NCBI GenBank assembly: GCA_000708835.1
Contig: DF237273.1
Span: forward strand, 1-64,000
Origin: Klebsormidium nitens
Lineage: Eukaryota; Plantae; Klebsormidiophyceae
Direction of reading: 5' to 3'
DNA: 64,000 nt
Numbering within the stretch: the first letter of the stretch is position 1; each line of letters begins with the position of its first letter. Below the pieces are notes generated by a model that was given only the letters and a program-made list of their open reading frames with translations, did no database searches and was not told the DNA's origin. Below, piece by piece: positions 1,386 through 24,610 of this stretch. The translations under genes and the position numbers were made by a program.

Positions 1386-3932
1386 GTATGGTCAAAAAGT
1401 GCAAATGCGTGACACAAAGAGCTCAAGTCTGAATCGTGCGCACACGGCATACTACAGAGCTCCACGAAGCAGTCCGATGGCCAGGGGACGTCTACCAGGC
1501 GCAAGGTCAGTCTTCACCAGCCACACATGGACACATCGGATACTTGCACTCGTCATCTGTAGCCTCCAGATACATGCAAACCTCGCCAATAGACCTTGCT
1601 TCAGCATGAATATCGACGTCGGCATCCGCTTCAGCTTCAGGGTCGACGGGGTGGAAGAGCAGGTCATGAAATTCAGCGACTATAGAGGCGAGGTCCTGAT
1701 GCTCAAAGCCCCCCTTGCTCATGAATCTTCGGAACAGATGAGCCCAATTCAGGTTGGTCGTCTTGCAGCATCTGCACATCTCGCGAAGATGGCGGATGGT
1801 GAGATTTGCTGCATCGTAACTGAGGTCACTGCCCTTTCTCTTTGCAGGAAGACGGCATCTTCAACTTTTCCGGCACCAACCTCATCTCGCACGGCCTCCT
1901 CTTGCGCAACCACTTTGCGGCGGCCCTGGGGGCGGCCCACAGCCTCAACTTTGAGGCGGGGGACATGGCGACGAGGTGCCTCGAGGGGCCGAACGTCCCT
2001 ACGCTGGACGACCGGGTGTTCGACTCGGCGATGCAGGCCTTCAACGACCTGGCGGCACGGTCTCAGATCCGTCACGTGTGCTCGCGCGTCGAGTGCGCGC
2101 ACCTCTACACGGGCGAGGTGGAGGCGGCCGAGGCGTAGGCCCGAATGGCTGGCAAACCCCCGAGGCCGGAGCGAACGGAGGGGCCGAGCTCTGAGCTGGC
2201 CACGTACGCTTTTGGGCGGGACAAGGTCATCACCTTTGATGGGACATTCTTTGCCAACTCGAGCGCGATGCGAGACTCCGGCACGAAAGCGTCCTTGCAC
2301 AGCATCTGCGAACCGGACCCGAAAGCGCCGAGGGTCTCTGGGGGCTTCACTCCTCTGAGCGTGGGCGGGGTACGACCTTCGGATGTGCCCTTGGAGGGAA
2401 TCGACTGCCCCTGGAAGTATAGGAACGGGCTGTCAGAGCTTAGACCAGCGGTGCGAGCTTTTGCGCTGAGGTGGTGCAACTTTCGCAAGGCTCCAGCGCA
2501 AGGGAACAACGCGCCTCTGAAGCTGGAGGAGTTCGTCGCCATGCGAGAGGGGCTTCCGGCGAACGTCGCCGCTCTGATCGACCTCGTGACGGAGTCGGGA
2601 GCTTGTGGCGATCCTGCCACGTGTGCGATTTGCAAGGCGGTGCCGCGGCGACCATGGATGGCAGGGTTCCTCAAGGACGGGCCCGTGGGAGCGACCGGCT
2701 GGTGCCCGACGCACTTTCAGCCGTACGGAGCCCTCCTCCACGCGCTGCTCATCCCCCGCTACTCGTGGGTTTTTGGGCACGTGGTCACGCTAAAGCTGCT
2801 GAGACACGTGCTGTTGGAGGGCCCTCTTTACGAGCGCGGACTGGCGTACCTCTCGAACGACGGCCCCATGGTGGCGGCCATCTTGCGCCTCCACCCCGTT
2901 GCCGGGGGGCTGTATGCCTTCCCACCGACGCTCCGTCCGCTCGTGCGCGACATCTATGCCACGAACCTCCTTTGCTTCGAGCCGAGCGCAAACCGGCCCG
3001 GTCCGTCCTCGCGATCGCCTCTGGCCGCTCTCCATGATGCTACCGAGCATCTGTGGACAATCGAAGCCGAGAGGCTGAGGCTCATGGGCCAGCTTGAGGC
3101 GGTCGCAATGGAGTACGTGGAGCGGCGAGGGGCGGCACTCAAGAGGGTCGCCAACTCGCTCCTGTTTGAGCTGGAGGTTCGCGAACCCTCGTGCTACAGC
3201 GGCGAAGAGTTCCTTCGAGCGCCATCGGCCGCTTATGAGGAGCGGGTCGGCGCCGTTTCGGTCTACTCTTTTCACCCCCTGCTGTATGGGCGGCCGCAGT
3301 TCACGGATTGGGAGGACGCTTCGGGTCGCGGGAGAAAGGGTTCCGAGGAGCGGCTCATGCAGCACTGCAGTGCTCCAAACCGCCGCTCGTCAAAGGGGCG
3401 CGCTGGGGTGTTCATCGCATGCTGTCAGGATCGAGCGCCCTTGGGGTACCACTGGCTGAAGGGCGGTGAGAGCGTCTCGGACCTTGGGACGGTGCTCCTG
3501 ACGCGGTTCCCTTTCAAGACGCTGCGGGGCATGACCATCGTGGAGGACGCCGCTTGCAACGCGCAGGAGTGGTTCTTGAACCGGGTGCCTCAACTGGCCA
3601 AGTTCATGCTGTTCGTCGTCGACCGCTTCCACTCGGGTCCCGTGAGCTGCGCACCGGCGGGGGCGAAGCGCTACGCGACGCATACGTGTGCGTCTACGCT
3701 TTTCATCGACTCCTTTCCGCAGCATGGCCACACAATCACAACCGCGTCGGAGGGCATCAATTCTGGGCTGAAGAGATGTGCAGCTAGCCTCCTGCAGATC
3801 ACGAGCATCAAGAGGTTGATAAGCCGTGTGACGACCATCCTTGACACGCTTTTCGAACGGTCGAAGTATGCTGTCTATTGGAGCGAGGCTAGCAATCCGT
3901 TGAGAGACTTGATCAGGCGGGCGCGAGGCTGA
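1386..3932 (+). pseudogene. KDZ (Kyakuja-Dileera-Zisupton) transposase, spliced, one in-frame TAG
   Basis: ORF 2145-3932 has VITFDGT, GVFIACC..LGYHWLKGGES, IVEDAAC..WFLNR.P, FVVDRFH..H.C and TTASEGINSGL, matching KDZ core motifs. Upstream ORF 1842-2138 (EDGIFNFSGTNLISHGLL, CxC5-like) is in the same frame, separated by TAG 2136-2138. A phase-0 GT-AG intron at 1753-1847 joins it to ORF 1399. The 5' end is uncertain. Confidence 0.78.
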
Positions 3933-3941
3933 CGTGCGGCC

Positions 3942-4615
3942 TTATTCCTCTATTACTCATTACCCACCGTCTCAAGTTCCATTCTCTTTGTACATTTGTC
4001 ATGTGGTGATGGAGGCTTTGCAAGAGGTTCCATATTCAAATAATCAATGGGTAATAGAGTAATAGGGTAACAGAGATGTGTGCTTGAGGCTTCTTCATGG
4101 GTACAGTCATGTGTGTGTGTGTGTGTTATAAGATAATGAAGGGGTAATAAGCTATTTGGTACTCAACGACTTCAGGAAGGTTTGTCTTTCTTGCTTTCTC
4201 GGGTCAATATGTGCCCCTCCTCATCCCTTCTCACCACCAACATATGACAGCTGGAGCAAGGGTAGAATCATGATGGAGCGATGCTGCTGATCTCCTGTAT
4301 TACTCGTTACTCTATTACCACTGTCTCAAGTTCCATTCTCTTTTGTACATTTGTCATGTGGTGATGGGCTTTAGAAGAGGTTCCATATTCAAATAATCAA
4401 TGGGTAATAGAGTAATAGAGTAATAGAGATGTGTGCTTGAGGCTTCTTCATGGGTACAGTCATGTGTGTGTGTGTGTGTGTTATAAGGTAATGAAGGGGT
4501 AATAAGCTATTTGGTACTCAACGACTTTAGGAAGATTTGACTTTCTTGCTTTCTCGAGTCAAACAATGTGCCCCTCCCCATCCCTTCTCACTACCCACTC
4601 ATGATGATTCGAGCA
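3942..4615. repeat. Tandem ~355-bp duplication; each copy has an inverted repeat of GTAATAG(A) iterons and a (GT)n tract
   Basis: 3942-~4260 aligns with 4298-~4615. TATTACTCGTTACTCTATTACC (4298-4319) pairs with GGTAATAGAGTAATAGAGTAATA (4403-4425); the first copy has the same arrangement at 3942-3965 and 4049-4070. Confidence 0.93.
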
Positions 4616-7333
4616 AAACGAGCACTTTTGCTCTGCGGCGGATTGTCGCGACTCTTTTGACTCTTTTGAAGCATCAACAAGCTCCTGAAGAGCTTTGGAA
4701 TCTGTCATCCATGGCCCTTCTTCATCCTCGGTATAGTCGAGCCGTTGCCAGGTGTCTACCCATTCCACAGTCGAGCTCATAAGCTTGCCTTTATGGAGAG
4801 CCTCGCAGATAGCGCCCTGTGGGGCAAACCACCATCCCTTATGGGTTCGAACCCCCTGAATGGAGCGTGCCTGCGGTCGCATATTGAAAACGGCATTGAG
4901 AGAGCGCATCAAGACGTTGACGCCGGTATGGCGGTCTTCTTTGATGTCCATCTGATGCAGGAGCGTGTCATAAGTCCGCTTGATGTCTGTCGATGCTACC
5001 CACGTCTCCAAAGAAGGGTGAAAGCACCCGTTCTCGAGCAGCGCTTGCATCATATTGACGTGGGGTGGAATGGAGTGTTCTTTAAGGCCTTCCCCCCAAG
5101 TTGTGACTGGCATCTTCTGAGAATTCCAATTGGATATTTCAATGGATGATAGATATCGATGGAGGTGATATGCGGTCTCGGGTTTCTCCAACTGCTCCAC
5201 GAGCTCATCAAAGTATTGCTTGTTTCCCATCTTGGCATCTGAGACTTGCTGGCAAGAGTATCGGCGATCGTCTGCCTCTCGTTTGACAGACCAAAAGTTG
5301 TTTGTGGTGAAGACGATATTGCTTTTGTCATCCACGCTGATAGGGTCTTGGCCTTTGCGCTCCATACACGTCGTCTCCTGAGTGATTAGGGACTTTATCC
5401 GGTCGTTCATCCGATACGCTCCGCCCCAACTGCCACATTCGTCCAACACAATCAACAACCTGTTGGCTGCTAGTGAGTTGAATTTGCCAATGATCTTTTC
5501 GATTTCGTTGCAATACAAATAATATATGGCGCCAAGGATCATCCGTCCAAAAAAGTCCCACAATACAGACTTTCCGCACCCTTGCCCACTGCGAAACACG
5601 AGAGCGACACCAATCTTCCTCCAAGGCTTCTGAACGGCGTGCGCCATCCAACGAAGGTTGTAGTCAAACCGCTCCTTTGAGCCATCGCACAAGATGTTGC
5701 GGAGGTGCCACATGAGCTTTGGCATCTGTTCCTCGCACTTCACGAGCTCCGACTCCGTCAATCTGCGGTCGAGCGGTTTGAATTTCAGCCCGGAGAACAG
5801 ATTGAAATGTCGTGATGACCCCTTTGACGGGTCCGGCTCGAATACGATTCGATCGTATTCCCGGCGTTTAGGACTGCTCTCCCAGAATCTGGCAACCTCC
5901 TTGCTTTTTCCAGGTAGGCTCTGGAGTTGGAAATTCCCGCAGACCTCCAAAAAGTTGCGGCCGGACCGAGCGATGGTCTCCTGGGGCTGAAGCTGCCCAT
6001 TCTCGTCTCTCGAGTAGATCATTTCCAGATAAACAGCCTTTGTCGAGCGGACAACGGCAAAGTAATGGTTCATGATACGCAAATCGAGATCGAGCAAGTC
6101 CAGTTTTGCTTTCCTTGTTCGTACGTCATCTTCCTTTTTCTTCCTTTTCTCGTCGCTTTCATCCGTGGACGGCTCGAAGGGAAGAATGTAGCTCTCGCAA
6201 GTCTTGAAAAGTTCCCCTTCCGCTCTCAGAGGCAAACACTCGGGCCAAAAGTGAATGCCCAGCAGTTGCTTTGGTCGATCAATGCACCCTGGACTGAGAC
6301 AGCGGTACACAAGAATGCATCCGTTGCTCATGATGCTAAACTGGTTCGAATCGTGTTGATGACCATTTAAGCAAGTTCGCGTGCCGTTTGTTTTGAACTT
6401 TAGGATCTGCCACCCATTAGGGGTCATTTCTCCAACACCGTTGAACGTGCCGGTGTCGTCTTGCACCTTATCACGCAGCAACCTCTTGATCTCTTGGAGC
6501 GCGCCTTCCAATCCGGGCAGGGCCTCCGTGTTTTGCACATTTCCAAGAGGTGCTGATGACATCGATGTTGAGTTCTCAATAACAGGTGAGGTGGCATTCG
6601 AGTCATTCTCACGTGACATGTGCTTATTTGATGTCTCAATCTTGTCTGTTGCGGTCTGTTGAACGTGATCGTTGAGAAACTTTGCAAGCCAGAGAGGCAT
6701 GTCATGGCATGCATCAAAGCTTGGAGGCCCGTTGAGCCATTGGTATGTTGCAAGCTTTCCCTGATCCTTGACGTAGCTTGCGGGGTGAGCATAAACGACT
6801 CCTCCACCAGCTCGACCGTCAATTCTATAGACAGTGTTGCCAACCTTGATGGTCTCAAAGTTACGGGTGCATTTGAGGCCAGGCGAAGTCGCCTTGAAGT
6901 AGAAATGAAGCCCGCCAGAACCTGTTTGAGCTTTGAGTGTTTGGGGCTCGCCATGTTCCTTAACAAGACGGTTCCAGAGCTCGATTCCCGGCTTTTTGTT
7001 ATCTTTGTTGGACACATCAATATCAATCACAAACACCCGACTGGGACGTGTCAGGATCGCGACTCCATTGGCGTCCTTCCTCTGCCGCATTGCTTCATCG
7101 ATCGAATATTTCCACAATTCGGGCGTCGTGATGTGTGCGTACTTGTGTGGAAAGTCGGCACCTTTCGTACCCTCTTTTTCATTCCAGAACATGCGCACGG
7201 GAATTGCATAGAGCCCAACATTGGAGAGTCGTTGAATCTCGTCTGCAATGGCTCGGGGCCCTACGGGCCTGGGGACATGAGCGGCCTGAGGTTCTGAGAG
7301 GCTGGCCTGGGCGTCTGCCATTTCTTTGTACAT
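4559..7333 (-). CDS. Primase-polymerase (bifunctional Prim-Pol-like AEP) + Zn-binding linker + D5/NrS-1-like SF3 helicase, 924 aa, intronless
   Basis: VFVIDIDV and QTGSGGLHFYF primase motifs; C..GHQH...RCLSPGC; Walker A FRSGQGCGKS; Walker B IVLDEC; motif C FTTNN; ADDRRY. Confidence 0.9.
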   Translation of the reverse strand: MYKEMADAQASLSEPQAAHVPRPVGPRAIADEIQRLSNVGLYAIPVRMFWNEKEGTKGADFPHKYAHITTPELWKYSIDEAMRQRKDANGVAILTRPSRVFVIDIDVSNKDNKKPGIELWNRLVKEHGEPQTLKAQTGSGGLHFYFKATSPGLKCTRNFETIKVGNTVYRIDGRAGGGVVYAHPASYVKDQGKLATYQWLNGPPSFDACHDMPLWLAKFLNDHVQQTATDKIETSNKHMSRENDSNATSPVIENSTSMSSAPLGNVQNTEALPGLEGALQEIKRLLRDKVQDDTGTFNGVGEMTPNGWQILKFKTNGTRTCLNGHQHDSNQFSIMSNGCILVYRCLSPGCIDRPKQLLGIHFWPECLPLRAEGELFKTCESYILPFEPSTDESDEKRKKKEDDVRTRKAKLDLLDLDLRIMNHYFAVVRSTKAVYLEMIYSRDENGQLQPQETIARSGRNFLEVCGNFQLQSLPGKSKEVARFWESSPKRREYDRIVFEPDPSKGSSRHFNLFSGLKFKPLDRRLTESELVKCEEQMPKLMWHLRNILCDGSKERFDYNLRWMAHAVQKPWRKIGVALVFRSGQGCGKSVLWDFFGRMILGAIYYLYCNEIEKIIGKFNSLAANRLLIVLDECGSWGGAYRMNDRIKSLITQETTCMERKGQDPISVDDKSNIVFTTNNFWSVKREADDRRYSCQQVSDAKMGNKQYFDELVEQLEKPETAYHLHRYLSSIEISNWNSQKMPVTTWGEGLKEHSIPPHVNMMQALLENGCFHPSLETWVASTDIKRTYDTLLHQMDIKEDRHTGVNVLMRSLNAVFNMRPQARSIQGVRTHKGWWFAPQGAICEALHKGKLMSSTVEWVDTWQRLDYTEDEEGPWMTDSKALQELVDASKESKESRQSAAEQKCSFCSNHHEWVVRRDGEGHIV

Positions 7334-7369
7334 TCTGACAAGATTTTAAATGAGGCGTTTCAAACGCGC

Positions 7370-7774
7370 GTGCGTTCGGTCTCGGGTCGCGCTGATTTTC
7401 TTACCATGATATTAGTACTCAGCATGGAGTCGCATAATGAAAGCGCTTTGAATGATTGCTGCACTTGCAAAGCGTGCGAAACTATCAAGCAATTTTATGA
7501 AAAGCATCCGGATGCTCGAAAGACTTACACAAAAAGGTACTACTACAAACATAGAGATGCAATCTTATTGGCCCAAGCCTTTGAGCGCTACAAGAACGGG
7601 CATGCATGTCAACAGAAGACTTTAAAGCGCCTTTTCGATGCCGGCTTTCCGGTGAAGATTCCGTTTAATGCATGGCAGCACGATGATCATCAAATGGCGT
7701 CTTTAGACACGTCAGATGTGATCAAAGTGCCCTCGCTCCATTTGGGCGCATTCACAGGGATCCAAGTGTCTTGA
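7370..7774 (+). CDS. Small basic hypothetical protein of the viral type (true start may be a downstream ATG)
   Basis: Intronless ORF between the primase and recombinase genes with CCTCKAC and K/Y/R-rich KQFYEKHPDARKTYTKRYYYKHRDAIL. Confidence 0.5.
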   Translation: MRSVSGRADFLTMILVLSMESHNESALNDCCTCKACETIKQFYEKHPDARKTYTKRYYYKHRDAILLAQAFERYKNGHACQQKTLKRLFDAGFPVKIPFNAWQHDDHQMASLDTSDVIKVPSLHLGAFTGIQVS

Positions 7775-7810
7775 AGGCAGCTTCCCGGTGGCGAGCAAAT
7801 TGTAAACCGT

Positions 7811-8866
7811 TCAAAACTGTATCCGAGTTCCATCAGGATTGAATTTCTTCTCATATGTCCGCTGTGCCATAGCTGCCGTGTGCAACATGCTCCGCGCGAG
7901 GTCGTCGCGCTCGGCAATGCTCGGAGCATCTTTAAAGAGGTTGCTGACGCAAATTTTGCGAAGGAGACACGAACCCACACTCGCGTCCTTAAAAAGGCCC
8001 GTGCTACAAAACTTGGTCAGATAGTTTCGACTCATCGGTTTGTCGGGCGACTTAATCTGAGACAAGAGGTATTTTCTGGGAAAGACCTGAAGGCTTTCGG
8101 CAATGACATTGTTGCATCGGGTCGACATGTCTATCGAAGTGGGTCCGTGGTGCTTGACGGTCTTATAATCGTTCAATACCAAACGAAACTGATCTTGTGC
8201 AATCTCTAAGAGATAGTTTCCGGAACCGGACATGATCTCACGTACCTCGGCCGTTTTGATGTCCTTCAAGCGCACAATGGGGCAATCGCTGTAGTCATTG
8301 CGGATTGCTGGTTGATAGCTATAAAGGCACAGTATGAGGTGGCGAAAAAGCACAAATTTGTCCTCATCGGTCAATTCTTCGGGCCTCTTGTGCAGGATCT
8401 TACGGTTCACGTGCCTTTGCAGCTCCACTCGGCGATCACTTATCTGATTGAGTGTCTTCCAATTGGCCGCTTCCCGCTCTGTCAGCTGCTGGGGAGGAGG
8501 CTTCGCATCTTCCATGAGCTTACGAACCTCTATGTACCGCTTGTAATAGGCATCATAGAGCTGTTTATCGTCGGAGAATGCTTTGCGCACTAGAACCAAG
8601 AGCGGATTGATCCCAGTGGCCTGCATTGACAGCTTTGTGGAATATGTTTCCTGAAAGTACTTGATGATTCCGTCGGCATCCTTGATCCAATCGAAGCTGG
8701 TGAAGTCTCGTTGTCTTTTGAACCCTTGAAACAAGCGCACGACATGCTTCATATATTGTTGAATCGTCAGGTCCTTTCGAGTACCATCCTCGAACGCCGA
8801 GCGCAGCAGCCTTTCTCCCTGGGTTACGGTGATTATGCGTCTCGTGGTTTCAACAGACCCTTGCAT
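7811..8866 (-). CDS. Tyrosine recombinase/integrase, 351 aa
   Basis: Catalytic residues in the expected order: PAIRNDY (R), DYKTVKHHG (K), CLLRKI (HxxR-like), LARSMLHT (H/W), AQRTY (Y). Confidence 0.88.
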   Translation of the reverse strand: MQGSVETTRRIITVTQGERLLRSAFEDGTRKDLTIQQYMKHVVRLFQGFKRQRDFTSFDWIKDADGIIKYFQETYSTKLSMQATGINPLLVLVRKAFSDDKQLYDAYYKRYIEVRKLMEDAKPPPQQLTEREAANWKTLNQISDRRVELQRHVNRKILHKRPEELTDEDKFVLFRHLILCLYSYQPAIRNDYSDCPIVRLKDIKTAEVREIMSGSGNYLLEIAQDQFRLVLNDYKTVKHHGPTSIDMSTRCNNVIAESLQVFPRKYLLSQIKSPDKPMSRNYLTKFCSTGLFKDASVGSCLLRKICVSNLFKDAPSIAERDDLARSMLHTAAMAQRTYEKKFNPDGTRIQF

Positions 8867-9133
8867 CTTTCACAATTTCTGGATACTCTCAAGAAAATTT
8901 TTGACCACCTCAAAGTCCCCAATTTCAGATACCATGAATGACTACGTTCAAAATCAATCTCACGAAATTGAGATGGGTAGCAGCTTTTAACGGTAAAAAC
9001 GGTTATGAGTGCGTGTAAAAGCCGCCTAAAAAGCGAGATGGCCACTCAATTTTCAGCTGAAATTATACTGGCGCTGGATACTGTGACTGGAAGAATACAA
9101 AAATGAAAGATGGTGACTTTTGGCGCATTCATG

Positions 9134-9682
9134 TTATCTGGGCGACGTGATTTTAGAGACTTCGTTAGCAATTCGAGCTTTCAGCGGGTTCGCAAGCATC
9201 TCGAGTCCCAAAACTGGCTCGTTGCTGTCCCAGATTACGCTTGGGGTGCAACGTGGTGATTCAAAAGACGCATTGCTATCCGTGTATTGAGGCAAAGCCA
9301 TCTTGCTTCCTCGATGCTCCGAGGTAGATCGCGATCGACGTTCAATGCGGCGGTTCTCATGATGAGCATATTTAGCATCTTTCAATGCTGTTCGCCAGCT
9401 TACAACTACGGAATATGGTCCATGGATTTCGAATTTGTCCCAGAAGGCGTCGAAGCCATCTTTTGAACGGGCACGAACCAGAGCTTTGGTTATATGCTTC
9501 AAATTATAGGGAGCAGCAAGTGCACGAAGGCCAGCAAGGGTGCCCACATCCAATATCGTATCATGCATGTTGAATTCCTTGTAGCAACGGATGATTCTAG
9601 TCTTGGCTGCGTTCAGAACCATTCTATCCATCTCTTCGATGGTTGCATTTGTTGATGGCCGGTATTTGAGAACAATATCCAT
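9134..9682 (-). CDS. Hypothetical protein, 182 aa, in the recombinase/primase module
   Basis: ATG-initiated intronless ORF, co-oriented with the recombinase; no recognised motif. Confidence 0.5.
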   Translation of the reverse strand: MDIVLKYRPSTNATIEEMDRMVLNAAKTRIIRCYKEFNMHDTILDVGTLAGLRALAAPYNLKHITKALVRARSKDGFDAFWDKFEIHGPYSVVVSWRTALKDAKYAHHENRRIERRSRSTSEHRGSKMALPQYTDSNASFESPRCTPSVIWDSNEPVLGLEMLANPLKARIANEVSKITSPR

Positions 9683-9923
9683 ACCTTGCTAAGGTTTCAA
9701 TAAAAAAGTGGATAATCAAAGCGTTCTTCGAATTATGGTGTGACGCCCGCCCTAAATCGAGCGAGCGCCAAAAAGCCTGTTGTGGTAAGTCTCATGGGCA
9801 CCGCCCTTCAAAAGTTCATGACCGAGTTTTGAGTACAATCTGGCAGATTGTGTCGTCAAAAGTAGGATCCGAGCATGCACCGGAGCCCTCAATCGGAATG
9901 CCCACAATCTCCACCGTAAAGCC

Positions 9924-10300
9924 TCACGGCCCGTAGTGACCCCTGCCTCGATTGATGCGATGCACTCTCGCCGCCATCCCCGACCCAGTGCGAACTGGTG
10001 CAAAAACGGTATGGTGTTTGATATCGCGTCCGACAAATCCGAGAGGAGTCTCACAATCCGCCAGGACAAATATGCCAATAGCGTAGGTGTCATACCCGTT
10101 CCCCGAATGCTTGCGAAGCACGAGCTCCTGGCTGGGTCGAAGCTTGCGAACGAGGTCTCGACGGCCTTCAAAGCTGACTCCAACGGCTCGAAATAGCATG
10201 CGTCCATCTGGAAGCTGCTCCATTGGAGGGTTGGCCCAAGGTTGGCCGGTGTATTCAGCCAAGCTCTCTCCTAAGTATGTATGCGACCCGCGAGCTTGAA
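9924..10300 (-). CDS. HIRAN-domain exon, probably part of a larger spliced gene
   Basis: FRAVGVSFEGRRDLVRKLRPSQELVLRKHSGNGYDTYAIGIF...LGFVGR matches the HIRAN pattern (VAGV.F...L.REP.N.YD.NAI.V...GYVP). Candidate AG acceptors lie near 10270-10297. Confidence 0.75.
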
Positions 10301-10439
10301 GGATGAACAACTTCGAGCTATGTGCTAGATTATCACACCGACAAAGCGCTCGGCATGGTTGAGGGGGCGCCCGTCGACTTGCACCATCGTGATATACAAA
10401 GAAGCCTTCACAACAACGCAAATTGACGGCTCCGAGCCG

Positions 10440-11235
10440 TGCCGACCAGTCAAAACTTGCCTCCATAATATAAGCATATCAACTTCGAAAGGGACAATTT
10501 TTGACTCGCAGCGAAGGCCATCTTCGAAGCATTGTGAGTAATGGCGCCGACCACTCAAAAGTTGCCTCGGAGTGTAAGCTTATGAGCTTTCAAAGGCTTA
10601 ACTTTTGACTCGCATGCAAATACGGCCATTCCACTACCAACGTGAGAAACGTTGTAAGTGATGGCGCCGACCAGTCAAAAGTTGCCTCGTAGTATAAGCA
10701 TGTGAGCATTCAAAGGCTTAACTTTTGACTCGCATGCACGTACGGCCATCTCGCCCATGACCTTTGTTATACGTTGTAAGTGATGGCGCTGACCGGTCAA
10801 AACCCGCCTCGTAGTATAAGCATGTGAGCATTCAAAGGCTTAACTTTTGACTCGCATGCACGTATGGCCAGTCCACCCACAAGCTTTGGAAACATTGTAA
10901 GTGATGGCGCGGGCAGTCAAAAGTTGCCTCGTAGTATAAGCATGTGCGCATTTTAAAGGCTGAAGTTTTGACTTGCATGCACGTACGGCCATCTTGCTCA
11001 TGATCTTTGACATACTATACGGTGTAAGTGATGGCGCGGACCAGTCAAAATCTGCCTCGTAGTATAAGCATGTGAGCATTCAAAGGCTGAAGTTTTGACT
11101 TGCATGCACGTAAGACCATTCGATGAAATCAAGATATCTTTAACAATGGTTGAAGTCATAGCGCCGGGAGTCAAGATCTGCTTCGCAGTATACTGAGGCA
11201 TACCAGCCTCCAATGGTACAGCTTTTGACTCTGTC
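10440..11235 (-). repeat. Array 2 of the ~120-bp repeat family (7 units; ~97-bp near-identical repeat plus 22-29-nt variable spacers)
   Basis: Arms at about 10448, 10553, 10673, 10795, 10915, 11043 and 11169; reverse orientation relative to array 1. Confidence 0.95.
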
Positions 11236-11959
11236 ACTACGCAAGACAGAATTCATGCTGAAGTCGATGATCAAAGTGACTCGCAAAACAAGGACGCCAA
11301 TTCTGCCCTCATAATGAATAACATTAAGAATTTTTGAGAGCTTTTGCGACAACTCTACTTGTTCTGGCCACCATCAGTAGCTACTCCTACGGCCGTATAA
11401 CACAACCCTCTACCGGTAGTGTCGCCTCGTACTCATCAAGCCGACCGTACTTCTCTCGCACTTCCTGCCATAGCAACGGCTTGAAGAGGTGAGGCCGGCC
11501 AGCTACAAACTTCCCGTTCGACTTCTTCGGAGCGACGTGGTTGAGCCCGAGGCCTACGTGGAGAACCTTCTTGATGGCGTTGCGCTTCATCGTCGCCGTC
11601 AGACTCTCAGCCGTCTGGTCCATCCCGTAAAAGTCGCGAACGAAGCTGAGCCGTTCAGGCGTTGGCCCGAGCATCGTGTCGTGAATCGCTTGCAATGCAT
11701 CCTCCTCGACCGCAAACCCGTCCTCTTTGCACCTTTCCACCTCCCCCGGCTGGCAGCCCAACAATTCTGCTGAAAGCATCACCGCAAAGGGAATCCGACG
11801 CGACATGTCGCCCCTGGCAGCGACGTACTCCTTCGTGACGCCCTCCATGTCCCCTTCCCTCAGGGCTCTCGTGAAGTCGTCCATGATGTCGGAGAAAGGG
11901 GTCGTTTGGAACCTGTCCAGGAGAGCCTTTGCAGAGTCATTAACTCCATACATCTTATG

Positions 11960-12055
11960 CCTTATGCAAGAGACACTTCTTTTTAAGGCAGGGAGAAGGC
12001 AGGGCAATGCAAGAGACACTTCTTTTCAAGCAGGGAGAAGGCAGGGCAAAGCTGA
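11960..12055. repeat. Short tandem duplication (AGAGACACTTCTTTT..GCAGGGAGAAGGCAGGGCAA x2) in a predicted intron
   Basis: Two ~42-bp copies visible directly. Confidence 0.85.
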
Positions 12056-13389
12056 AGCAAGAACGACGTGCAAAGAGGCAATGCCCAGAAGCAACGATTG
12101 TTTGGAGCAAGGAGACGATCTCGCATTTGATTCGATAGAAGAAAGAACAGAGCAAAGCATAACCGAATCATCTAAGCTGATCAACCTAGCCGCAACTTGC
12201 TTGGATCTTCATAGTGTTTCCCGCTGACCTGATGTAGTTCTGGAACGGGACGAGCTCCTTTCCGCAGTGCACCACCTCGTAATTGTGGTCGACTCGACGG
12301 GGATCGACCTTGTGCACATTGCGGATGCACTCGTAGATGTGTCTCTGCCGCACCTCCACCTCGTCCAGGGTGTCAATTTCATCCTTCTCAAGGAGTTTGC
12401 GGTACGCCTCGTCATCGACCACATACCTGGCCCGCCAAACATCGTCGGCGAGGTCCTTGTCATCGTCGTTGCCAACTCTGCGCACCTGAACAGAGGGGGC
12501 TTCGTCGTCCAGATATACCTCATGGACGACGAAGCCCTGCTTGATGAGGTCAGCGCGCAAAAGCTCTCCGTAGTTCCGGAAGCTGTTGGCGACCGTGAGG
12601 ATGTTGTTCGCGTACAGGACGCAGCCGGGGGAGTTCCTGTCGCAGACCGGCCGCGTTCCCGAGGGGGCCAGCAGGAAGTCGAGATGCTCGGTGCTGCCAA
12701 GCAGCTTGGCGAGCTCGCGATCTTCGTCTTCGATCGCGCAGAAAACGTCTTCCACGGTCGAGGGAAGCGACTGGGGGCCCGCGCCTTCCTTCACATAGAT
12801 CGTGAAGTTGGTGACAGTGCGATCGCGGAAGAGCTGCTGGAGGAACGTCTCGACGGTTGGCCCCCGCTCGAAGCTGTTCATGGCGAAAGCAATGAGCTTG
12901 TCAAAGTGGGGCCGCTCTCACGAGATGCCGGGGCCGATCACGGGCGAGGAGGCGCACAGGTCTGCCGTCATGTGAGTGTCGGGATCGGTAACCGCCAGCT
13001 CGAGAGCGTCTTTTGCCGCTTTTGTCGTCGGTTTGGAGTAGAAGAACTTTCCCGACTTGGCAGTCCGGCCGTCGCTCGGGAAGCGCTGCTTGAAGGCTTC
13101 CTCGAGCTTCAGGACGTACGTCTTGCTAGACGAGGGCGCCTGCAAGGAGAAAAAGTGATGCCCCATTGGAACCAAAGTTGCGACCAGATTCTGAAACTTC
13201 TACAACGCAGTTCGAAGTAGAGGGGTAAGGCTCGAGTGTGATCGGAACGTGTAAAAGTGGAGCGCCCAAGAGTGCAGATGTATGTAACCTGCGTGTTTTC
13301 AATATTATTTGCTGACCACGGATCTCTCGGGTCAGTCTGTTATGAATCTCGTAATAACTAAGTTGACAGTCCTCACGTTCATTTTCTGA

Positions 13390-14100
13390 GAGCGTGATTC
13401 AAACTTGGGTCGGGGCGACAAGAAATTTCTCCTGCTGACGCAGCAGTCTATGGTTGATCCATTAGAAAAAGGATCGCGTGCTGCCACGTCAGCGGATTCT
13501 ACCTCTTGAAGTTAGGGTGGCCGGGAAGAGCAGGGCAGTCTTGACGTTTGTGTTTTGAAAGCTTAAAGCAGATTCCGGTTGGGGCGACAAGAGATCTCCT
13601 TGCTTACACGACAATTTGAAACTGATTCCGTGCAGAAAGGAAACAGGCGGTGCCACGTCAGCTGACTCCAATTCTCGTTGATCTGGCCTGGAAGGGCAAG
13701 GCAGTCTTAACGTCCCATTCCACAGGCTGATCGATTCCAAAAAGATTCAATTGCTGCCACGTCAGGAGACTACAATCGAACTTCGATTCTAGCCCAGAAG
13801 ACTCCGGGGAAGGTTTAACGTATATGTTGAAGAGCTTGCAGGATAAACACGGTGAAAAGAAGCACGCCCGGACCAAAACGCCACGTCACCAAACTCCAGG
13901 TCATCTCTTATTCCGGTCGGGAAGCACTGAACAGATACGACGTTCCTTTTTGGAGCTTGACACAGATTTGGGTCGGGGTTTCAGAGCTTTCCTTCTGCTA
14001 ATGCGTCAGCTCAAGCAATTCGCCCGCCGTTTCAAGATAAGCAGAAAAAACGAAAAGAAGAGATCACCACGGACCAAGCACCGGCTGCCACGTCAAAGAC
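13390..14100. repeat. Degenerate intronic repeats carrying five co-oriented GCCACGTCA motifs
   Basis: GCCACGTCA at 13483, 13652, 13756, 13880 and 14087. The first two lie in ~169-bp related units that also share GGGGCGACAAGA and GGCAGTCTT.ACGT. Confidence 0.8.
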
Positions 14101-15014
14101 TTTGATTTCGTTCAAGGTCTGTACGCGAGCTACCAAACACGACGTTCGTTCCTGAAGCTTCAAAGTTGCGTCCAGGTGTGAAAGGGTTTTCTTACTGACG
14201 AACTCACTATGACGTGCTCGCCTCTCTGCAGGGACTCCATCGTCTCAGCAATGGCCGGGCCGTAGGGGTCCTTTTGGAACCGCTTGGTCGCCGGGATGTA
14301 CTTGATCGTGGCCTTCCGTTCACCCGGGTACACCCCGCGGTTGCGGATCGTGTGCAAGGCAGCTTCTGGCCGGACCATGTGCAGCCACTGCATGACCCGG
14401 GGGCTGCCGATGTTGGCGTCCATCCCGAGCACAATCTTGGCATGCCGCGTCACCCCTTCCAGCGCCAGAAAGACCATCTTCTTTCGGGCCATGACGTCCG
14501 AGTTCATGTTGGACAGGATCATGTCCATCTCGTCCATGATGACCACGTCAAAGCTGGCGGCCAGCCTGGGGAGGGAGTTTACGCAGACAACGACCCTGCC
14601 GTCGTCAATCCTTCCAGTCACATCGAGGTAGAGCGTCGCCTCGATGCCGCGCCGCGTCAGATCCTCCGCATATTTCCTGGCGAGTGTGACGTTTGCTGCG
14701 ACCATGACGAAGTTTGCAAACGGAAATCTTTGCAGCAGCCTCTCTAGCCAGTCGTTCCCCTCCTTCGATTTGCCAATGCCCTTGTTGGCCGACGTCAGGA
14801 TCGTTTTCCTGGCAGGGGAGTTGATGGAGAAGGGCGGATAGGGGCGCATGCCGTCCACCTTGACGTAGTCCTCCGTCCAGCCCGTGATTTGCCCCGTCTC
14901 CAAATGGAGCAGACGTGCGATTCCGCTGCAGAACGAGAGGGCACACGACACCTTATTTACAACTCTTTATGATCCAACGACCGTTCTAGCTCGAAGAAGA
15001 GGGATTCATAAACG

Positions 15015-15470
15015 GAAGGGATGGCCGGGCTTGGCTACAAGTCAAAAGTTCCGTCGTGAATACCTGGAATGCTTATACTCACAAGGGAGGTTTTGACTGG
15101 TTGACACTGTTAGTCGCAAAGGATAATCAAAGACGGAGTGGCGGGGCTTGGCTGTGAGTCAAAAAATCCGCCGTGGAAAGCTGCAATGATTATACTATGA
15201 GGGCAGGTTTTGACTGGTCGACGCCATTAGTCACAAAGTTTCACGAACAACAAGGGATTGGCCGAGCTTGACTACGAGTCAAAAGTTCCCCCGTGGAGAG
15301 CTGCAATGCTTATACTCTGAGAGGAAGTTTTGACTGGTCGGCATGTTGATCACAGAGGCTAGTCCCGAGACGAAAGGAATGGCCGGACTTAGGCTTCGAG
15401 TCGAAAGTTTAGCCGTCAGAAGCTGCTACCCTTATATCATGAGGGCAAGGCTTGACTGATTGACACACAA
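15015..15470 (+). repeat. Array 3 of the ~120-bp repeat family (4 units) inside intron 14926-15680
   Basis: Arms at about 15040, 15157, 15277 and 15399; antisense to the host primase-helicase transcript. Confidence 0.95.
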
Positions 15471-18293
15471 GTGGCGAACAGATCCTACATTCGACCCTGA
15501 GGTATCTTGCATCATCTCACGACGCTAGTGACGGAAGCTGATTTGAAAGCATAAACTACGGCGACTCGGTTCCGATCTCGACCTTCCAGCCTGGGGCCTC
15601 CGAAAACGTACTTCATGGGACCGTTGCTCGGAAGGTGGGAAATCAAATCAAAGTGATTCCCGTTGCCCGTGATGGCTCACCTGCAGGTGGCGGAGTGGCA
15701 CTTGTAGAATGCCACCCCCGGCCGGGACCGGCGGTAGAGCAGGTACGTGTTGTTGTTGCCCGGGGACGTGTGCGGACGGCCAGCGAGGAGACATGTGGGC
15801 TCCGGCACGTCGAAGTGGACCGTGAAGACCCCCGAGCCGACGACGTGAACGCGCGCGAGCGTAGCGCCGGGGTGCTCCTGCTGATAGTACTCCACCAGCA
15901 CGCGCTGCTCCTGCTCGCCCAGGTCCGCCCGATTCTGCCCGCCATCTTCCGGGAGGCCCGCATCTCTCACGCGCATCGTGGGGCGCTGCGGCCGCGACAA
16001 CGTGGGGGCGTGCTGCTGGAGGTACGCCTCGAGGCGCGCCGCGTCTAGCTGGGCGCAGCACTGCAGCTCCGCAGCCGAATAAAGCCCCGCGAGGTGGTCC
16101 ACGATGAGCTCCGAGCTGCCCTCGCTCGGCTCGAGGACGCGGTCGCTCCCCTTTTTGCTCGACCACAGCATACGCCAATTCTGGAACTTGGAGTAGACCG
16201 TGCCGTCCCAGATCAGCTTCGGGCGGCCCCGCTGATCCTCCGTCCAGACGAACTCGGCGCTGCGCGCCAGATGGGGGGGCGGGTTCTTCTGGAAGTGGTC
16301 GAACGCTTTTGCAAACAGGCTCCGCGCTCGGCTATCCTCCAGGTAAAACCCCTTGAGCACCCCGTGGACGCTGTACCTGAACCCCCCCGCGACTGCCCCA
16401 TGCGCCGTGCTCTCCTCGAACCGGACCGCCTCTCCCAACACTCCCAGAACCGCCTCCAGAAACCCATCCCTCAGCCGCTCAAAGTGCTGCTTCCGCTCAG
16501 CAAAATCTGCATCCCGCGCCCCGACCGCCTCCTCGGAGTCGCCCGCGCACACGCTCAAAGGCACGTAGTAGTCCAGGCCGAAGTAGAGCAGCGAAGGTGT
16601 CTCTTCGAGCAGACACTCGTACCGGTGCTTCCTCTGGCCCCTGAGGCGTGCGCAGTAAGCCAGCAGCGCAGGGACGTCCGGGAAGCTGGTGAACATCTTC
16701 GCAGCGGAATCTCGCGCGGAGTCAGCGGCGACGACGATGCCGTGGCCGTGGAGGGTCTTCCAAGCCACGGCGAGATCCTTGGGGCCCCGGCCGGTCGGAC
16801 TCTCCTTGCTCTTGAACCACTGCTGACCGTAGACCGCCGTCGTGTGCCTCTGCAGAGTTGGACAAATGCCATCAGGAAAATGTGCGGCTGATCGTGCGAC
16901 TGATAGAGCTTCGGCTTTCAAGTGTGGTCCTCAAGCTCAGTGAGCCCGTGCAGAGTTGCAACGACAGATCTAAGTCAAACTCTCGGACTCAGATTGTCAA
17001 CCAGGGGAGCGATAGTCGTCCGAAAGCAGGGATGGTATGCACAAGTGCTGCAAGAGAGACCCGTGTCTGCCCGTGCTTAATCCTCAGGCAGCGAGGTATT
17101 TCTCGGAGGAAATGAAGCATCTCCTTTCTATGCCGCTTTCATTTAGTGTTCTCGCAGCCGAGAAAAGGTCGATGTACACCAAACTCGAGTGCTCAAAAGA
17201 CCATGTGGCCGCTTTAGACCAAAGGTAGATTACCGATTCGAAGTCGCGCACGCTCTCACCAGCAGACTGCCAACGGAGTCTTGATCTCTGGTTGGAGCTA
17301 GCTCGGTCGTATCCTGCCTGGCCTCCAACCCCATTTCCTGCACGCAAACGCAGACCTTTATGAGCACGTGCGCAAAAGACGGACCTGGAGATCCTCTCGT
17401 CCGCGGCGTCGAAACTAGACAACGCCCAGCAGTACAAGCGTGCAACTTTCCGATTGCGGACGATGTGATGCAAAAGCAAGGGCGGCCATCACACCTGGCA
17501 GCGCGCTGACCAGCAGCCAGGCTGATCTTGATTTCATCTGGCATGCTTGCCGAATTTAACGACCAGATCCGATCGGTCTGGTCGACATTTGGACGAACAG
17601 CGCGACTTCTTGTCGCACGCAAGACCTTTGGAATAGCTTCCAACATCATTCAGTAAGAGTGATCCTCTCTGAGAGTTGGGACATGAAATCCGGATGCTTA
17701 CCTGTACAATCGGAGCCCCGCCCACAGGATGATGCTCGGCAAGCTCCCCGGCGGGAGGCTCCGGGTTCTCCTCGGGCGCATCCTGACAATAGACTCTTGC
17801 CGCGTGAAGTTCCTGGGCACATGCACATGATGACATGATTGAAAGAGTGGAGCCTGCAAAAACCCTAATCATGAAGATATTGTTTGTGAACCAACTTTCA
17901 GAAGAGGAGAAGCGGGCGCGCGCCTCCGCGAATCGCGCTCCAGAGGCCCGGCACTTCCTACTAGACATGAGAACCGGGTTCTGAAGTGCTCGAGTTGAAC
18001 CAGAGGTGTTGCTTCTCACCCCTCACTGATTGCACACACGCAGCTGGCACCGGACTTCTCTTTCGAAGGCAATATTACACGTGTGGCAGCGCCCGAGTTG
18101 TAATGCAGCTTACCGTTTCGCACGGGCTTCCGGTCCTCTAGAACCGGAGGGCGCTGGGGAGCTCTCCCTGCTCGAGGAGGCCCTTTTTCTGTCCGCGACC
18201 TCCTGCACACAAGAACCAGGCGCTCGCTCGATTCAAGAAGGGTGTCACACAGGCTTAGGGGGAACGCTTTGGCACTCCAAGGGCATCGGAATC

Positions 18294-18756
18294 ATGGGCT
18301 ACGACACCAGATCATGGCCGCTTCGCCTTTTCTCGCTCTCTGACCGCCGAAGAGTGCGCGATTTTGGAAGCAGTGCACGACCACCGCCACGAGGACGACC
18401 TGGAGCTACCTTATGCGGCTAACGAGGAGCGCCCGGTCACCATCGAGCGAGAGGTGATCAAGCCCTTGTACGTGGGCGAGGGCTTCGACTACCTCACGAG
18501 AAAGTACCCCTCCTTCTATTGCCAGTGGACGGTCTCACCCAACAAGCGCGCTCTACTTTGGGACAAGGGGGAGAAGTTTTACAGTTATGTGGGCTGGCTC
18601 GAGTACCTCATCTCCCACATTTTTGAGGTATGGGGGTTACAGCTCAGCGGGACCATCACATGGAAGGGGACGAATCGGGGCGACAGGGGTTCGATCACGG
18701 TCGAGGGCAACAAGATCATGGTCAAGATGCCTCTGGCCCGAGTGGACTCACCGTAG
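18294..18756 (+). pseudogene. Phage/giant-virus-type small conserved protein with an early frameshift
   Basis: MGYDTR-(frameshift at ~18312)-HGRFAFSRSLT...YCQWTV...WDKGEKFYSYVGWLEYLISHIF..WGLQLSGTITWKG..RGDRGSITVEGN resembles a family I recall from phages and nucleocytoviruses (MGY.T.F.G.F, WDGGEKFY.Y..WL.YLI); not searched. Confidence 0.65.
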
Positions 18757-18894
18757 GTGCCGGCTCTGTAGCACCGGGATGGGGGCCGCTCGCAGGATGC
18801 GGGTCGCTGCTGGCGGGGCCCGGGTCCTGCAAGTGCGCAAGGGACTTTGTGAAGAGCCATCAATCGGGACGCTCTAAATGAAGCAGCGTTCATT

Positions 18895-19215
18895 CTCGCC
18901 GCCAGCAGTCAAAAGTTCCTCTCAGTATAAGCACGCTCTTCGTAAACAGGCCCCGAGTTTTGACTCCGAGATGAGGTCAACCATCCTTGTTTGAGAAGCT
19001 TGCGATTGATGGCGCCGCCCGGCAGTCAAAAGTTCCTTTCACAATAAGCACGTTTATTGCACAAGGCCCAAGGTTTTTGACTCTGACATGAGACCGCCAG
19101 ACTATCCCACTCAAGCGTTTGAACAAAAGCGCAGGTCAGTCAAAACTTGCCTCTCAGTCTAAGCATATCAGCTTTCAGTGGCGCACCTTTTGACTTGCAG
19201 GCAAGTCCGTCCATC
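18895..19215 (-). repeat. Array 4 of the ~120-bp repeat family (3 units)
   Basis: Arms at about 18907, 19024 and 19138. Confidence 0.92.
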
Positions 19216-19222
19216 CTGTCCA

Positions 19223-22200
19223 CTACTGTTGAAGCTTGAGCCGGGACCAACGAGGAGCGTATGCGACCCAGAACTCGGTGCTCACCCGACTGATAGTCTG
19301 GGGTCGCAGACGCGGCACGATCATGCACAGATTTGTAAACTCCTCCCCAAAGTCCGATTCGTCGAAGCCGCCATCGTCTTCGGGTTCTAGCGGACCGTCG
19401 GAGCTAGCGCTGGCGTCAGGCACGAGCACATCGCCCCCCGGGTGCTGCACCTCCTCCTCCGACCCAGCAGCACCGCTCCGCCTTGCCGAAACGCTGCCGT
19501 TCTCACCCGAGGACTCCGATGATGGGAGCAGCACCCGACGGCGCCGCCTGGTTTGTGGAGAGGGGGTTGCCTCATCACAAACCCGCCGCTTTCGGAGCTG
19601 CTGATGAGCCTGGGCAGCCGCCCACCGCCCGTTGCTTGCGGAAGAACCCTGCGAAGGGCTGCCCTCCTCGGCTGAGCACTTCGACCGGAGAGGCAGGAGA
19701 CGGGCTCCCGGCTTGAAGCCCTGAGCCTGAAGCTGAGAAACGTCCAACTCGGAGTCGGATTCCCTGGCGGCACGAAACCTGCCTTGCGCAACCACCGGAT
19801 TCTCTTCGTCTTGACTTCCGTCGTCGATCATGAGGCGATCTTGGGATGTCTCCACGTCCCCAGATTCGCCCACGCTCTCAAACTCCGCCCCCTCAATGTC
19901 CTCGCCTTCTTCTTCAGATCCTGATCGCCCAAACCCGGACTCACTGGCCGCACTCGTCGCCGACCGCTGGTTGCCGCCGCTTTTCTGGACGAAGGATGGG
20001 CCTTTTGTCAGAAATTAATCAAGAGACGTCTTCTGCAAATCAGCGCCGAGGGCATCCCGTGGAAGCAAGGCAGGCCGTCATCACGAATTGTTGACGTGGT
20101 CCAAAAGCTTCAGATAGAACCTCAAATGTTTCTTGCAGCGCGTGGACTCTGACCATCTGGAGCCAACCCAATCTGAAAAGGTCTCGCTAAAGAGACATGC
20201 GAGGAACAACGAACGAGTTCAACACATTCCTTGCTGGGAACGCATCACAACCACTCAAAATCTCAGCAACACTAGCATTGCCGAATCGCAGTTCTGGCCC
20301 TTGAAGCAGATCTCAAACGAACCGCTTTCGAGATGCGTACAACTTATACAGCTTGAACGAGCTCAGATCAATCCATAGTTCTCACCTCTGCTGTGGCGCC
20401 GCAACCCTTGACTGCAGCGCCAGCTGTCTCTCCCAATGAAGTGGACAGCCGGTCCTCTTCGTCTGCTCTGTTGTCTTCCACCTTGAAAGACGATGAGTGA
20501 CATTCGATCAGAACATGCGGAGCACATTCTTACCACAATTTCAATAAGCATACAACCAGCGTATGCAAACCAGTGTCGCAGCACTCCACCCTACTCACAG
20601 TCTTAAAATACGAAGTGCAATGCAAAGCAAACGAACGTCGCCAATGCGCAACAGATGATCAATGCAAAAGGCTGGCCCTCACATATCATCCAAGGTGATA
20701 ATGAAGACCTACTTTGGCACAATTTGCAGCACGACATTTTTCGAAAGCCAGCCCCTCGAGTCGCCTTAAAGACTCGGAATGCTTTGACTTCGTTAGTCGA
20801 GACGAAATGCATCCGTGGCAGCTTCCGATCGTGGTGCTAGAGCAAAGATACACATCTTACCAGGGCAGTCAGGAGGCCGTCTTCTATCCTGTCCAAATGA
20901 CTGAGCTCTCTCTGGAGCAATTCCGCGTCCGCCCTCGGCATCTCTTCCGGGAACTCGGGCCTTTCGATGCCCCCTGTCACCACGCGGTCAGATGCTCGAG
21001 AGGCAATGCCTCCCTTCGAATCTGCAGGGCTGGGGTCCACCTGGAAAATGGAGAGGTGAACGGGTCAACTTACACGCATGAGCAGGTGCTCTGAGGAGTC
21101 ACCGCGCAGCTTTCTCGTTGGCACAGTTGTGGCAAAACTACTGTCCCTATCAATTGACTTGCAAAAACGCGATACCCATGTTTCCTGCAACAGCGATGAG
21201 TGGCCTGGGACGAGCATTGGAAACGTCTTCGATCACTGGATCATGGGCGCCTTAACTGTTATGCGACAAGTGTTAAGTGCTTACCTGCTCGTAAAGCTTC
21301 CCATTCTTCTGCCACTTCTCAAACTCCTCAGGAACAGCGCGCTGACCACATGCCGGCCGCCAGCTCTGTTCGACGTCCTGCACAACGGCCTCTCTTCTTA
21401 CCATCAGGTTTCGTCTGTGGGTTACGAGTTCAGATGACGCTACCATTCCAAAAGCAGAAAGAAGTGATGCGACCGCAGAACGGTCTGACAGGCTCAAGCA
21501 AAGCTTTGAAGCAAAGCACTGCACTCGTTGTTGTAAACTATCACAGAGCCGTGCTACGAGTTGTTGAGTCAGCATGGGCTCGTCCTCACCTCTCGAGAGG
21601 GCAAATTCACAAGCTGACGGCAAGGGCTGACATCAGGTGCAGGTGCGTCCTTATTCTCGTTTCCCTGTGATTGGAGCGCTGGCCCAGGATTGCTTTCGAC
21701 GCCGCCGATCAGCAGAAGCTTTGCTGCAAAATGAATGCCAATGATGGACAAGCGAGCCAAACCGACAGTTCAGGTCATGAAAGAAGCAGATGGCGTGCAC
21801 GCCTCTGTTGACGGACCACACCTTGTCAATAATAATAAAGAAACCCACTCTCAGCACTTTAAGGCCATGTGCAATGTGTGGTCCAGCAGACTGTCAGACC
21901 GGCTATCCGGTCACACTCTTTTCGGCCAAACAGAAGAAGGGCAGCTACAAGCAGCCCGCACCTATTTGATAGAGTGACTCACCATTGAGGAGCTTGCTCT
22001 TGGGGGTCGCATCCCACCTGAAGTTGTCATGCTGATATCCGTCGCATGCTGTGGAAGATAGGCAAACATATTGAGTTGGCACGTGAGTAGGCAAGGTTTG
22101 GTTTCAAGCTCGACAGGATTCTCTTTGAGAGACATCGTAGAGGTGGGGTTTCAGGATTAGGAGAGACCAAGCAAAGTACAAGCAGCAGAACAGTCCATTG

Positions 22201-24175: not shown

Positions 24176-24269
24176 CCCCTGCATAGGGAGAGTTCGAGAT
24201 GACGACAGGGGAGGCACATGTGTCTCTGCTGCTGTCTGGCTGTGTGTCTGGCACGCAAAGCACTGGTCT

Positions 24270-24610
24270 ACGCACTTGAGCTTCCAAGCCAGAGCAAACT
24301 GTCGAGTCTGTGCGCCATGAACCTCACAAGAACCTCAGAAAAGTGCGCGGGGGGGCTGACAAGCTGCACCAGCTGGTCTAAGCATTCTAGCCTCCAAGCC
24401 AATGCAGATTGTCCAGTCTTTGCACCATGAAGCACAGAGGAAGCTGGGAAAGTGCCTCGCGGGGCCTGACAATCTGCACCAGCTGGTTTCGGCATTGAGC
24501 CTCCAAGCCAATGCAAATTGTCGGAGCTTTGCTCTGCTGACTGCAGAAGGACCAAGGAAAGTGCCTGGCAGAAGTTCGCAGTTTGCACCAGCTGGTCTAC
24601 GTAGCTGGTG
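24270..24610. repeat. Three ~109-bp tandem repeats (unrelated to the hairpin family)
   Basis: GCCTCCAAGCCA..GCA.A.TGTC and TGCACCAGCTGGT recur at ~109-bp intervals. Confidence 0.85.

Follow-up and report, generated by a model that had tools for sequence, protein, structure and literature searches.

A Polinton-like-virus recombinase and primase-helicase module probably carried by a KDZ-type transposon in Klebsormidium nitens

In the viruses described as polisuviruses, a tyrosine recombinase (YR) and a replicase of the archaeo-eukaryotic primase (AEP) type are reported to form a stable pairing, replication and integration genes are treated as independent modules, and DDE enzymes go with pPolB while YRs go with AEP or PolA (bioRxiv 10.64898/2026.10.13.758929). 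The genome of Klebsormidium nitens is listed with seven capsid loci of Polinton-like viruses (PLVs) (PMC10120064, Table S5) and is described as carrying inserts of nucleocytoplasmic large DNA viruses (PMC5294986). Here we analyse K. nitens DNA, 64,000 nucleotides of contig DF237273.1 (“the window”), in which a YR gene and a primase-helicase gene adjoin what remains of a KDZ-type (Kyakuja-Dileera-Zisupton) transposase gene, its 3' exon. In contrast to the usual pairing in such viruses, the AEP replicase and the YR would here go with a DDE transposase. We propose, with a probability of roughly 55%, that these genes belong to a composite KDZ transposon with a YR and primase-helicase module captured from a PLV without its capsid genes, the window copy being truncated at its 5' end. 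We favour this reading because the module recurs beside one KDZ transposase family, because sequencing depth is raised over both, and because a deep subfamily keeps the link. The module is real, mobile and multi-copy, and the combination is apparently new: we found no description of it in a search of largely open-access literature, Repbase aside, that included Klebsormidium with KDZ, Zisupton, polinton or YR. For other copies, the analysis drew on their proteins, locus tags, contig records and sequencing-run contigs.

As initially annotated from the letters alone, the module consists of open, intronless frames for a primase-polymerase/helicase of superfamily 3 (SF3), a small basic open reading frame (ORF), a YR and a hypothetical protein (Table 1). 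The largest product matched Prim-Pol (E 3.4e-15) and DUF5906 (E 3.8e-19) in Pfam, both above the cut-off, the ‘Primase’ structures 6k9e/6k9c in the PDB (E 1.9e-10), and primase families among PHROGs. It contains GQGCGKS at residue 583 and LIVLDE at 627, which we take to be the Walker A and Walker B motifs, together with what is presumably the TTNN motif at 676. It is thus predicted to be a bifunctional primase-polymerase and SF3-type (NrS-1-like, DUF5906) helicase. Phage records matched it in 452 cases, at about 27% identity over the helicase part. The YR had no Pfam or PHROG match of note. Its structure model (predicted local distance difference test, pLDDT, 80.7) matched Cre/Xer/lambda integrases (best E 3.8e-6) and gave stronger matches still to proteins from algal giant viruses and from a virophage (best E 3.4e-10), and residues R189, K235, R303, H329 and Y338, to which we assign the roles established for the family, are present in the usual order. 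We class the protein as a tyrosine recombinase of the virophage/PLV type.

A profile built from this YR found 4,456 representatives at E values up to 0.001. Comparison with the YR of a PLV-like metagenome contig, L002, gave 96.8% in hhalign. There was no match to the YR among 50,697 phage records, and no confirmed relative in IMG/VR with the YR alignment, the helicase, two distant YRs or the KDZ alignment as queries; a metagenome scan returned five YR loci, all distant (26–28% identity) and outside the close family. Among YR relatives whose context could be read, the nearest (26% identity) lie on L002 (1-12409) and the overlapping contig L001 (1-5892), where the YR stands amid two capsid-like genes and a polymerase-helicase-like gene. 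These capsid-like genes are presumably PLV genes, although no PDB or Pfam match named them. In a YR tree made by a quick method (79 rows, 341 columns, the ‘kleb’ label being assumed for some rows), 23 close relatives fell into one starred set with three subgroups, while the branch of the PLV row was long, and no donor can be named from this tree; the seven K. nitens PLV capsid loci are possible donors.

Both YR and helicase are hidden in current gene models. KFL_003240020 is 98–99.9% identical to the window YR and helicase frames, and five public K. nitens models (P0035, P0039, P0041, P0042 and P0089) fuse pieces of the two; these fusions are likely annotation errors that conceal both genes. 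We considered a single, truly spliced protein and set it aside, the five models joining at different residues. A sister YR (P0010) shares a 6906-base contig with another Prim-Pol plus D5-type helicase (P0045), so that more than one type of helicase occurs alongside this YR family. The small ORF belongs to no Pfam or PHROG family, and its stretch has been conserved next to the YR elsewhere, in at least one further copy (P0006). The 182-codon ORF at the right has no Pfam or PHROG family, no Atlas match and a structure model whose pLDDT of 37 makes it unusable.

The left neighbour is a predicted KDZ-type transposase with a CxC cluster and conserved acidic motifs. We found 21 relatives; full-length relatives (1254–1331 aa) match the window exon only from residue ~572–633 onward; the window frame lacks the first ~608 of ~1300 residues, and part of it is 100% identical to gene model KFL_003240015. 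The first ESM Atlas match (0.95) was a CxC5/KDZ cluster, with 196 of 256 features and KDZ, CxC5 and CxC6 as top families, an assignment that comes from one source and covers part of the protein. In Pfam the relatives reached CxC4 (E 8e-4 to 6e-3) and KDZ (E 0.038), all below the cut-off. The acidic motifs VDRFH and xEG(I/L/V)N were present in 13/13 relatives, (V/I)EDxxC in 12/13 and an FDG-type motif in 10/13; we take these to form the DDE triad. No Plavaka family match was obtained for the window transposase in Pfam or the Atlas, and a GTDB scan with a full-length KDZ protein found no relative. On this side the neighbourhood is not intron-rich, as had been thought, since it holds one 2.1-kb exon with one in-frame stop (2136-2138). 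Left of it, a coding-like minus-strand frame (1510-1860) stops where the intron of the KDZ exon starts, which suggests a deletion or insertion junction near 1775-1850.

To place the module and the transposase relative to one another in other copies, we relied on matched contig records and locus tags rather than contig DNA, leaving out the window's own scaffold; the lists hold only proteins near query length, with some clusters expanded and some YR rows grouped by identity rather than by tree, P0045 was kept out of the helicase set, and several matched contigs may derive from one sample. The KDZ gene was found on 14 of the 19 other contigs bearing the window's helicase family (those with no listed KDZ measure 4681, 6033, 24264, 25666 and 113040 bases), and all three genes occurred together on 9/19. 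Conversely, a listed helicase was found on 13 of 37 KDZ contigs. Contigs with a YR of the window's subgroup (n = 19) carried the helicase in nine cases and KDZ in eight. Adjacent K. nitens locus tags on three other scaffolds (KFL_013830010/020, 008920020/030 and 002740165/170) agree with this linkage. Moreover, four other K. nitens models join YR onto helicase on the same strand, and one, KFL_014570010, runs from YR via helicase on into KDZ antisense, the arrangement of the window; these fused models establish the same gene order and orientation as in the window, with YR then helicase on one strand and KDZ convergent.

The link appears to be old. In a deep subfamily of two contigs (38474 and 44300 bases), the helicases are 9% apart within the pair and 29–48% from the rest, and the KDZ proteins 12% apart and 20–29% from the rest. 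Across 12 linked copies helicase and KDZ distances were correlated (Mantel rho 0.53, 31/2000 permutations), as were those of YR and helicase (rho 0.67, 28/2000). The helicase-KDZ correlation is due entirely to the deep pair. We conclude that the linkage goes far back and that the copies have become mosaics. The copies differ by 5–48% in protein sequence and retain long frames, with 11 of 18 listed variant sites in KDZ and 9 of 15 in YR at third positions.

Sequencing-run contigs gave a similar picture; runs X1–X3 are one sample, possibly the source of the assembly, and X5 is a different one. In both samples depth was raised over ~1.85–9.2 kb, a unit that includes KDZ and leaves out most of the 182-codon ORF. 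In X1, unique contigs had a depth of 16–19, against summed depths of 101–285 over the KDZ exon and 144–418 from helicase to YR, and of 20 at 9341–9807; KDZ depth was not higher than that of the module. The right limit was sharp: at 80% likeness X1 depth fell from 215 (9176–9239) to 17 (9240–9303), and in X5 from 226 to 24 across ~9175, most copies continuing differently beyond ~9.2 kb. The region of the 182-codon ORF lies on a unique contig (9177–10118) with one more copy in X1 (82% over 9364–9610) and diverged pieces in X5, and the HIRAN gene is repeated separately (depth up to 245), past a near-unique gap. The boundaries initially drawn for the module (3942-9700) therefore do not hold, since the repeated unit extends over the KDZ gene and stops at about 9.2 kb. 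Likewise, by the initial annotation's own test, in which constant flanks would count against a separate module, that reading fails on the KDZ side, which recurs; the HIRAN side is not constant, as shared sequence stops before it.

Directly past the helicase gene, two tandem copies of a ~355-bp unit form a candidate replication origin; they fill the first 700 bases of the segment initially annotated, where they went unremarked. In each unit an ~80-bp spacer with 60–64% AT separates TATTACTC-type 8-mers, to its left, from GAGTAATA-type 8-mers, to its right; the unit also contains a TG run and ends with a copy of the helicase's last codons; the helicase C-terminus matches 4175-4258 at 79–82%. There are five and six matches to the 8-mer motif per unit against three in the other 63 kb, the motif having been derived from the repeat itself. 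The repeat has a hairpin z of -2.7, an Rfam scan of 1-25000 gave no match, and a 365-nt contig looping back on itself had a depth of 280 against 16–19 for unique contigs. We read the repeat as a candidate origin since, in the satellites known as Staphylococcus aureus pathogenicity islands (SaPIs), opposed iterons flank an AT-rich region right after the helicase gene.

Table 1 Features of the repeated unit and its right flank in the window
Feature	Position	Strand	Remarks
KDZ-type transposase, 3' exon (predicted)	1848-3932	+	single 2.1-kb exon; pseudogene in the window copy
Two tandem copies of a ~355-bp unit	3943-4650		directly past the end of the helicase gene; found by repeat detection
Primase-helicase gene (predicted)	4559-7333	-	924 aa; frame open, intronless
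Small ORF	7370/7406-7774	+	122-134 aa; open, intronless
Tyrosine recombinase (YR) gene (predicted)	7811-8866	-	351 aa; frame open, intronless
YR upstream region	8867-9200		right limit of the sequence common to most copies (~9200)
182-aa ORF	9134-9682	-	open, intronless; variable passenger or flank, in a minority of copies

Several observations weigh against a composite transposon. On 24 of the 37 KDZ contigs there is no listed helicase and on 5 of the 19 helicase contigs no listed KDZ; two sister YR subgroups have the window-type KDZ or helicase on none of 22 contigs; and the linkage itself is known from contig records and locus tags, not from the DNA of those contigs. Once the deep pair is removed the helicase-KDZ correlation drops to a rho of only 0.16 (565/2000), YR and KDZ distances give 0.28 (359/2000), and just one of five listed variant sites in the helicase is at a third position. 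Depth summed over contigs does not measure copy number, GC differs by ~14 points between KDZ (64%) and the module (45–51%), and neither a terminal inverted repeat (TIR) nor a target-site duplication was found in the window copy, whose left end is missing. Apart from repeats of the hairpin family described below, no long inverted match joined 1150-2300 to 8800-26000.

Much of this would fit the proposal of the initial annotation, which saw a younger, separately mobile satellite or integrative plasmid without capsid genes, merely nested between the KDZ and HIRAN genes; in its sharper form, the YR would insert site-specifically at KDZ 3' ends. The parts of it that stood are that a PLV-type YR and primase-helicase module is mobile and multi-copy and differs in base composition from its left neighbour; its lack of capsid genes has been weakly tested. 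The GC contrast, the lack of fine-scale co-divergence with KDZ while YR and helicase distances correlate, the KDZ contigs with no listed helicase, the sister YRs without a window-type KDZ, and the sister YR that keeps company with a different Prim-Pol/D5 helicase all speak for separate mobility, as does the origin-like repeat, positioned as described for SaPI satellites (PMC9371898). We nevertheless consider it unlikely, given that KDZ recurs on 14/19 contigs, that the deep subfamily retains the link and that KDZ depth is not above module depth, while several helicase-less KDZ models are cut 3' by a scaffold edge and so are not evidence of empty sites. No att-like repeat exceeded chance at the module edges, the only shared 8-mer (3903 and 9155), tried as an att core, being at chance level, and neither an end-to-start joint of a circle nor a module-skipping joint of an empty site was among the joints listed (29 more existed, and contigs drop rare forms). 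An imperfect palindrome at 9041-9072, tried as a YR site, was equalled in 25 of 200 shuffles. Nor did anything support a young age, many sister copies having a broken YR or helicase.

Alternatively, the block could be the replication end of a larger, capsid-encoding PLV that either fused with a KDZ element or integrated into one, much as Teratorn combines a herpesvirus with piggyBac, with the capsid half past ~9.2 kb lost. The divergence of most copies beyond that point and the capsid-like genes around the nearest readable YR relatives, whose capsid identity we assume, would suit such an origin, yet no capsid or packaging ATPase was matched by Pfam in the module ORFs or in 81 ORFs of at least 95 aa (1-2200 and 9650-34000), a search that also missed the L002 capsid-like controls, and tblastn with the L002 capsid-like proteins found no match in the whole window. 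K. nitens is listed with seven PLV capsid loci (PMC10120064), which also counts in its favour, but their contigs showed no correspondence with the listed module contigs, large scaffolds and contigs not being comparable in this respect, and IMG/VR held no close relative; overall we regard a lost capsid half as unlikely. Finally, dead remnants might have landed together once and spread by segmental duplication in repeat-rich DNA. The pseudogenised KDZ exon of the window and the broken sister genes are what decay would leave, whereas long frames kept at 5–48% protein divergence, the third-position bias of KDZ and YR and the sharp limit near 9.2 kb common to two samples make this highly improbable.

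Under the composite-transposon reading, the entire element would move by cut-and-paste, driven by the KDZ DDE transposase. Binding of the primase-helicase to the opposed 8-mers beyond its own gene would open the spacer between them and allow this enzyme to replicate the excised DNA, so that copies multiply. Dimers or circles formed in this way would be resolved by the YR, which would also swap modules among copies, and such exchange would account for the mosaic family. With its transposase apparently dead and its module intact, the window copy could move only with help from another copy. A fuller version, in which a self-copying KDZ transposon with a PLV-derived YR and AEP/SF3 module and its own iteron origin, lacking a capsid, amplifies extrachromosomally in a streptophyte alga and swaps modules, is a tentative possibility. 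If the composite reading is right, the locus provides a culturable case of a PLV replication module without capsid genes inside a KDZ transposon, and bears on whether such modules move alone and how viruses become transposons; the intact YR, helicase and origin-like repeat are candidates for direct tests.

The remainder of the window contains further elements. A ~120-bp unit that contains a GTCAAAA...TTTTGAC hairpin of 56–57 bases forms five arrays, at 40-1300, 10440-11230, 15020-15440, 18900-19215 and 23590-23980; the first and third share one orientation and the other three the opposite one, and the hairpin motif has 19 exact matches, none beyond 24 kb. The initial statement that 3942-9700 is free of this family was accurate, but the hairpin-free stretch (~1.3–10.4 kb) also spans KDZ and HIRAN. 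The arrays might serve a second, larger element as origins or as binding sites. On the minus strand at 12186-16930, there is a split gene or gene pair for an origin-binding helicase of the herpes UL9-like kind (Pfam E 3.8e-13), two pieces of which match phrog_4913. A 414-aa ORF precedes it, has no Pfam match and shows motifs that we take to be AEP-like; one of the hairpin arrays lies between the two. The region may represent another replication module, separated from the first by 3 kb. The HIRAN-domain ORF (9752-10466, minus strand; Pfam E 9e-4, below the cut-off) consists of two overlapping frames and is repeated apart from the module. Close by, at 10025-10059, an X5 contig shows dense C-to-T differences, and the C>T excess across X5 could reflect either methylation-driven decay or a converted library. 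A 165-codon frame (18259-18756, plus strand) matches the uncharacterised phage family phrog_38666 (E 2.5e-16). A multi-exon minus-strand gene at 28525-32243 begins with a coiled coil, has a P-loop that is NACHT/STAND-like (E 1.6e-5, below the cut-off), and presumably resembles Crinkler-type genes, while 42000-60000 holds intron-rich, host-like genes, including exons near 50.4–52 kb and 56.6–59.9 kb that we take to be kinase-like.

In comparison with described elements, the locus shares with KDZ transposons a large multi-copy transposase, a CxC4-like cluster and conserved acidic motifs, and differs in that its cargo is a viral replication-recombination module, where fungal KDZ cargo reportedly (in work by Iyer in 2014) comprises TET/JBP and chromatin domains. 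Cryptons are capsid-less, carry a YR and are not known to have a primase-helicase; unlike them, the window also has a helicase and a DDE transposase. PLVs are elements of 15–30 kb with a double-jelly-roll major capsid protein, a packaging ATPase, TIRs, and either pPolB or a primase-helicase together with a YR or rve integrase. With PLVs and polisuviruses the locus has in common the same broad YR family and a single protein that unites an AEP-type primase with an SF3-type helicase, a pair recognised here by Pfam, structure comparison and hhalign, in integrated, multi-copy form; it departs from them in its linked KDZ-type DDE transposase and in that no capsid, ATPase or TIR was seen. Transpovirons are likewise capsid-less and have a helicase, but are described as linear mimivirus plasmids with an SF1 (superfamily 1) helicase (PMC3671162), in contrast to a Prim-Pol/DUF5906 helicase in an algal scaffold. 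The giant repeats of Amoebidium are similar as intron-poor repeated clusters with YR genes beside a KDZ-group transposase, yet reach up to 50 kb, and the available part of that account names a Plavaka transposase, not the KDZ-like type of the window, and does not mention a primase-helicase (PMC11244446). SaPIs, other phage-inducible chromosomal islands and P4 satellites combine an integrase with a primase and SF3 helicase, and the islands also place opposed short repeats round an AT-rich spacer right past the helicase gene (PMC9371898). The window has such a combination of integrase and primase-helicase with no capsid gene found, a weakly tested absence, but lies in eukaryotic nuclear DNA and shows no att sites, helper or helper-interference genes. 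In Teratorn, too, a DDE transposase is joined to viral replication genes, there in fish, as piggyBac with a whole alloherpesvirus including its capsid genes, over 41–182 kb (PMC6431247); a self-copying KDZ transposon, if confirmed, would be a third route from virus to transposon beside Polintons and Teratorn.

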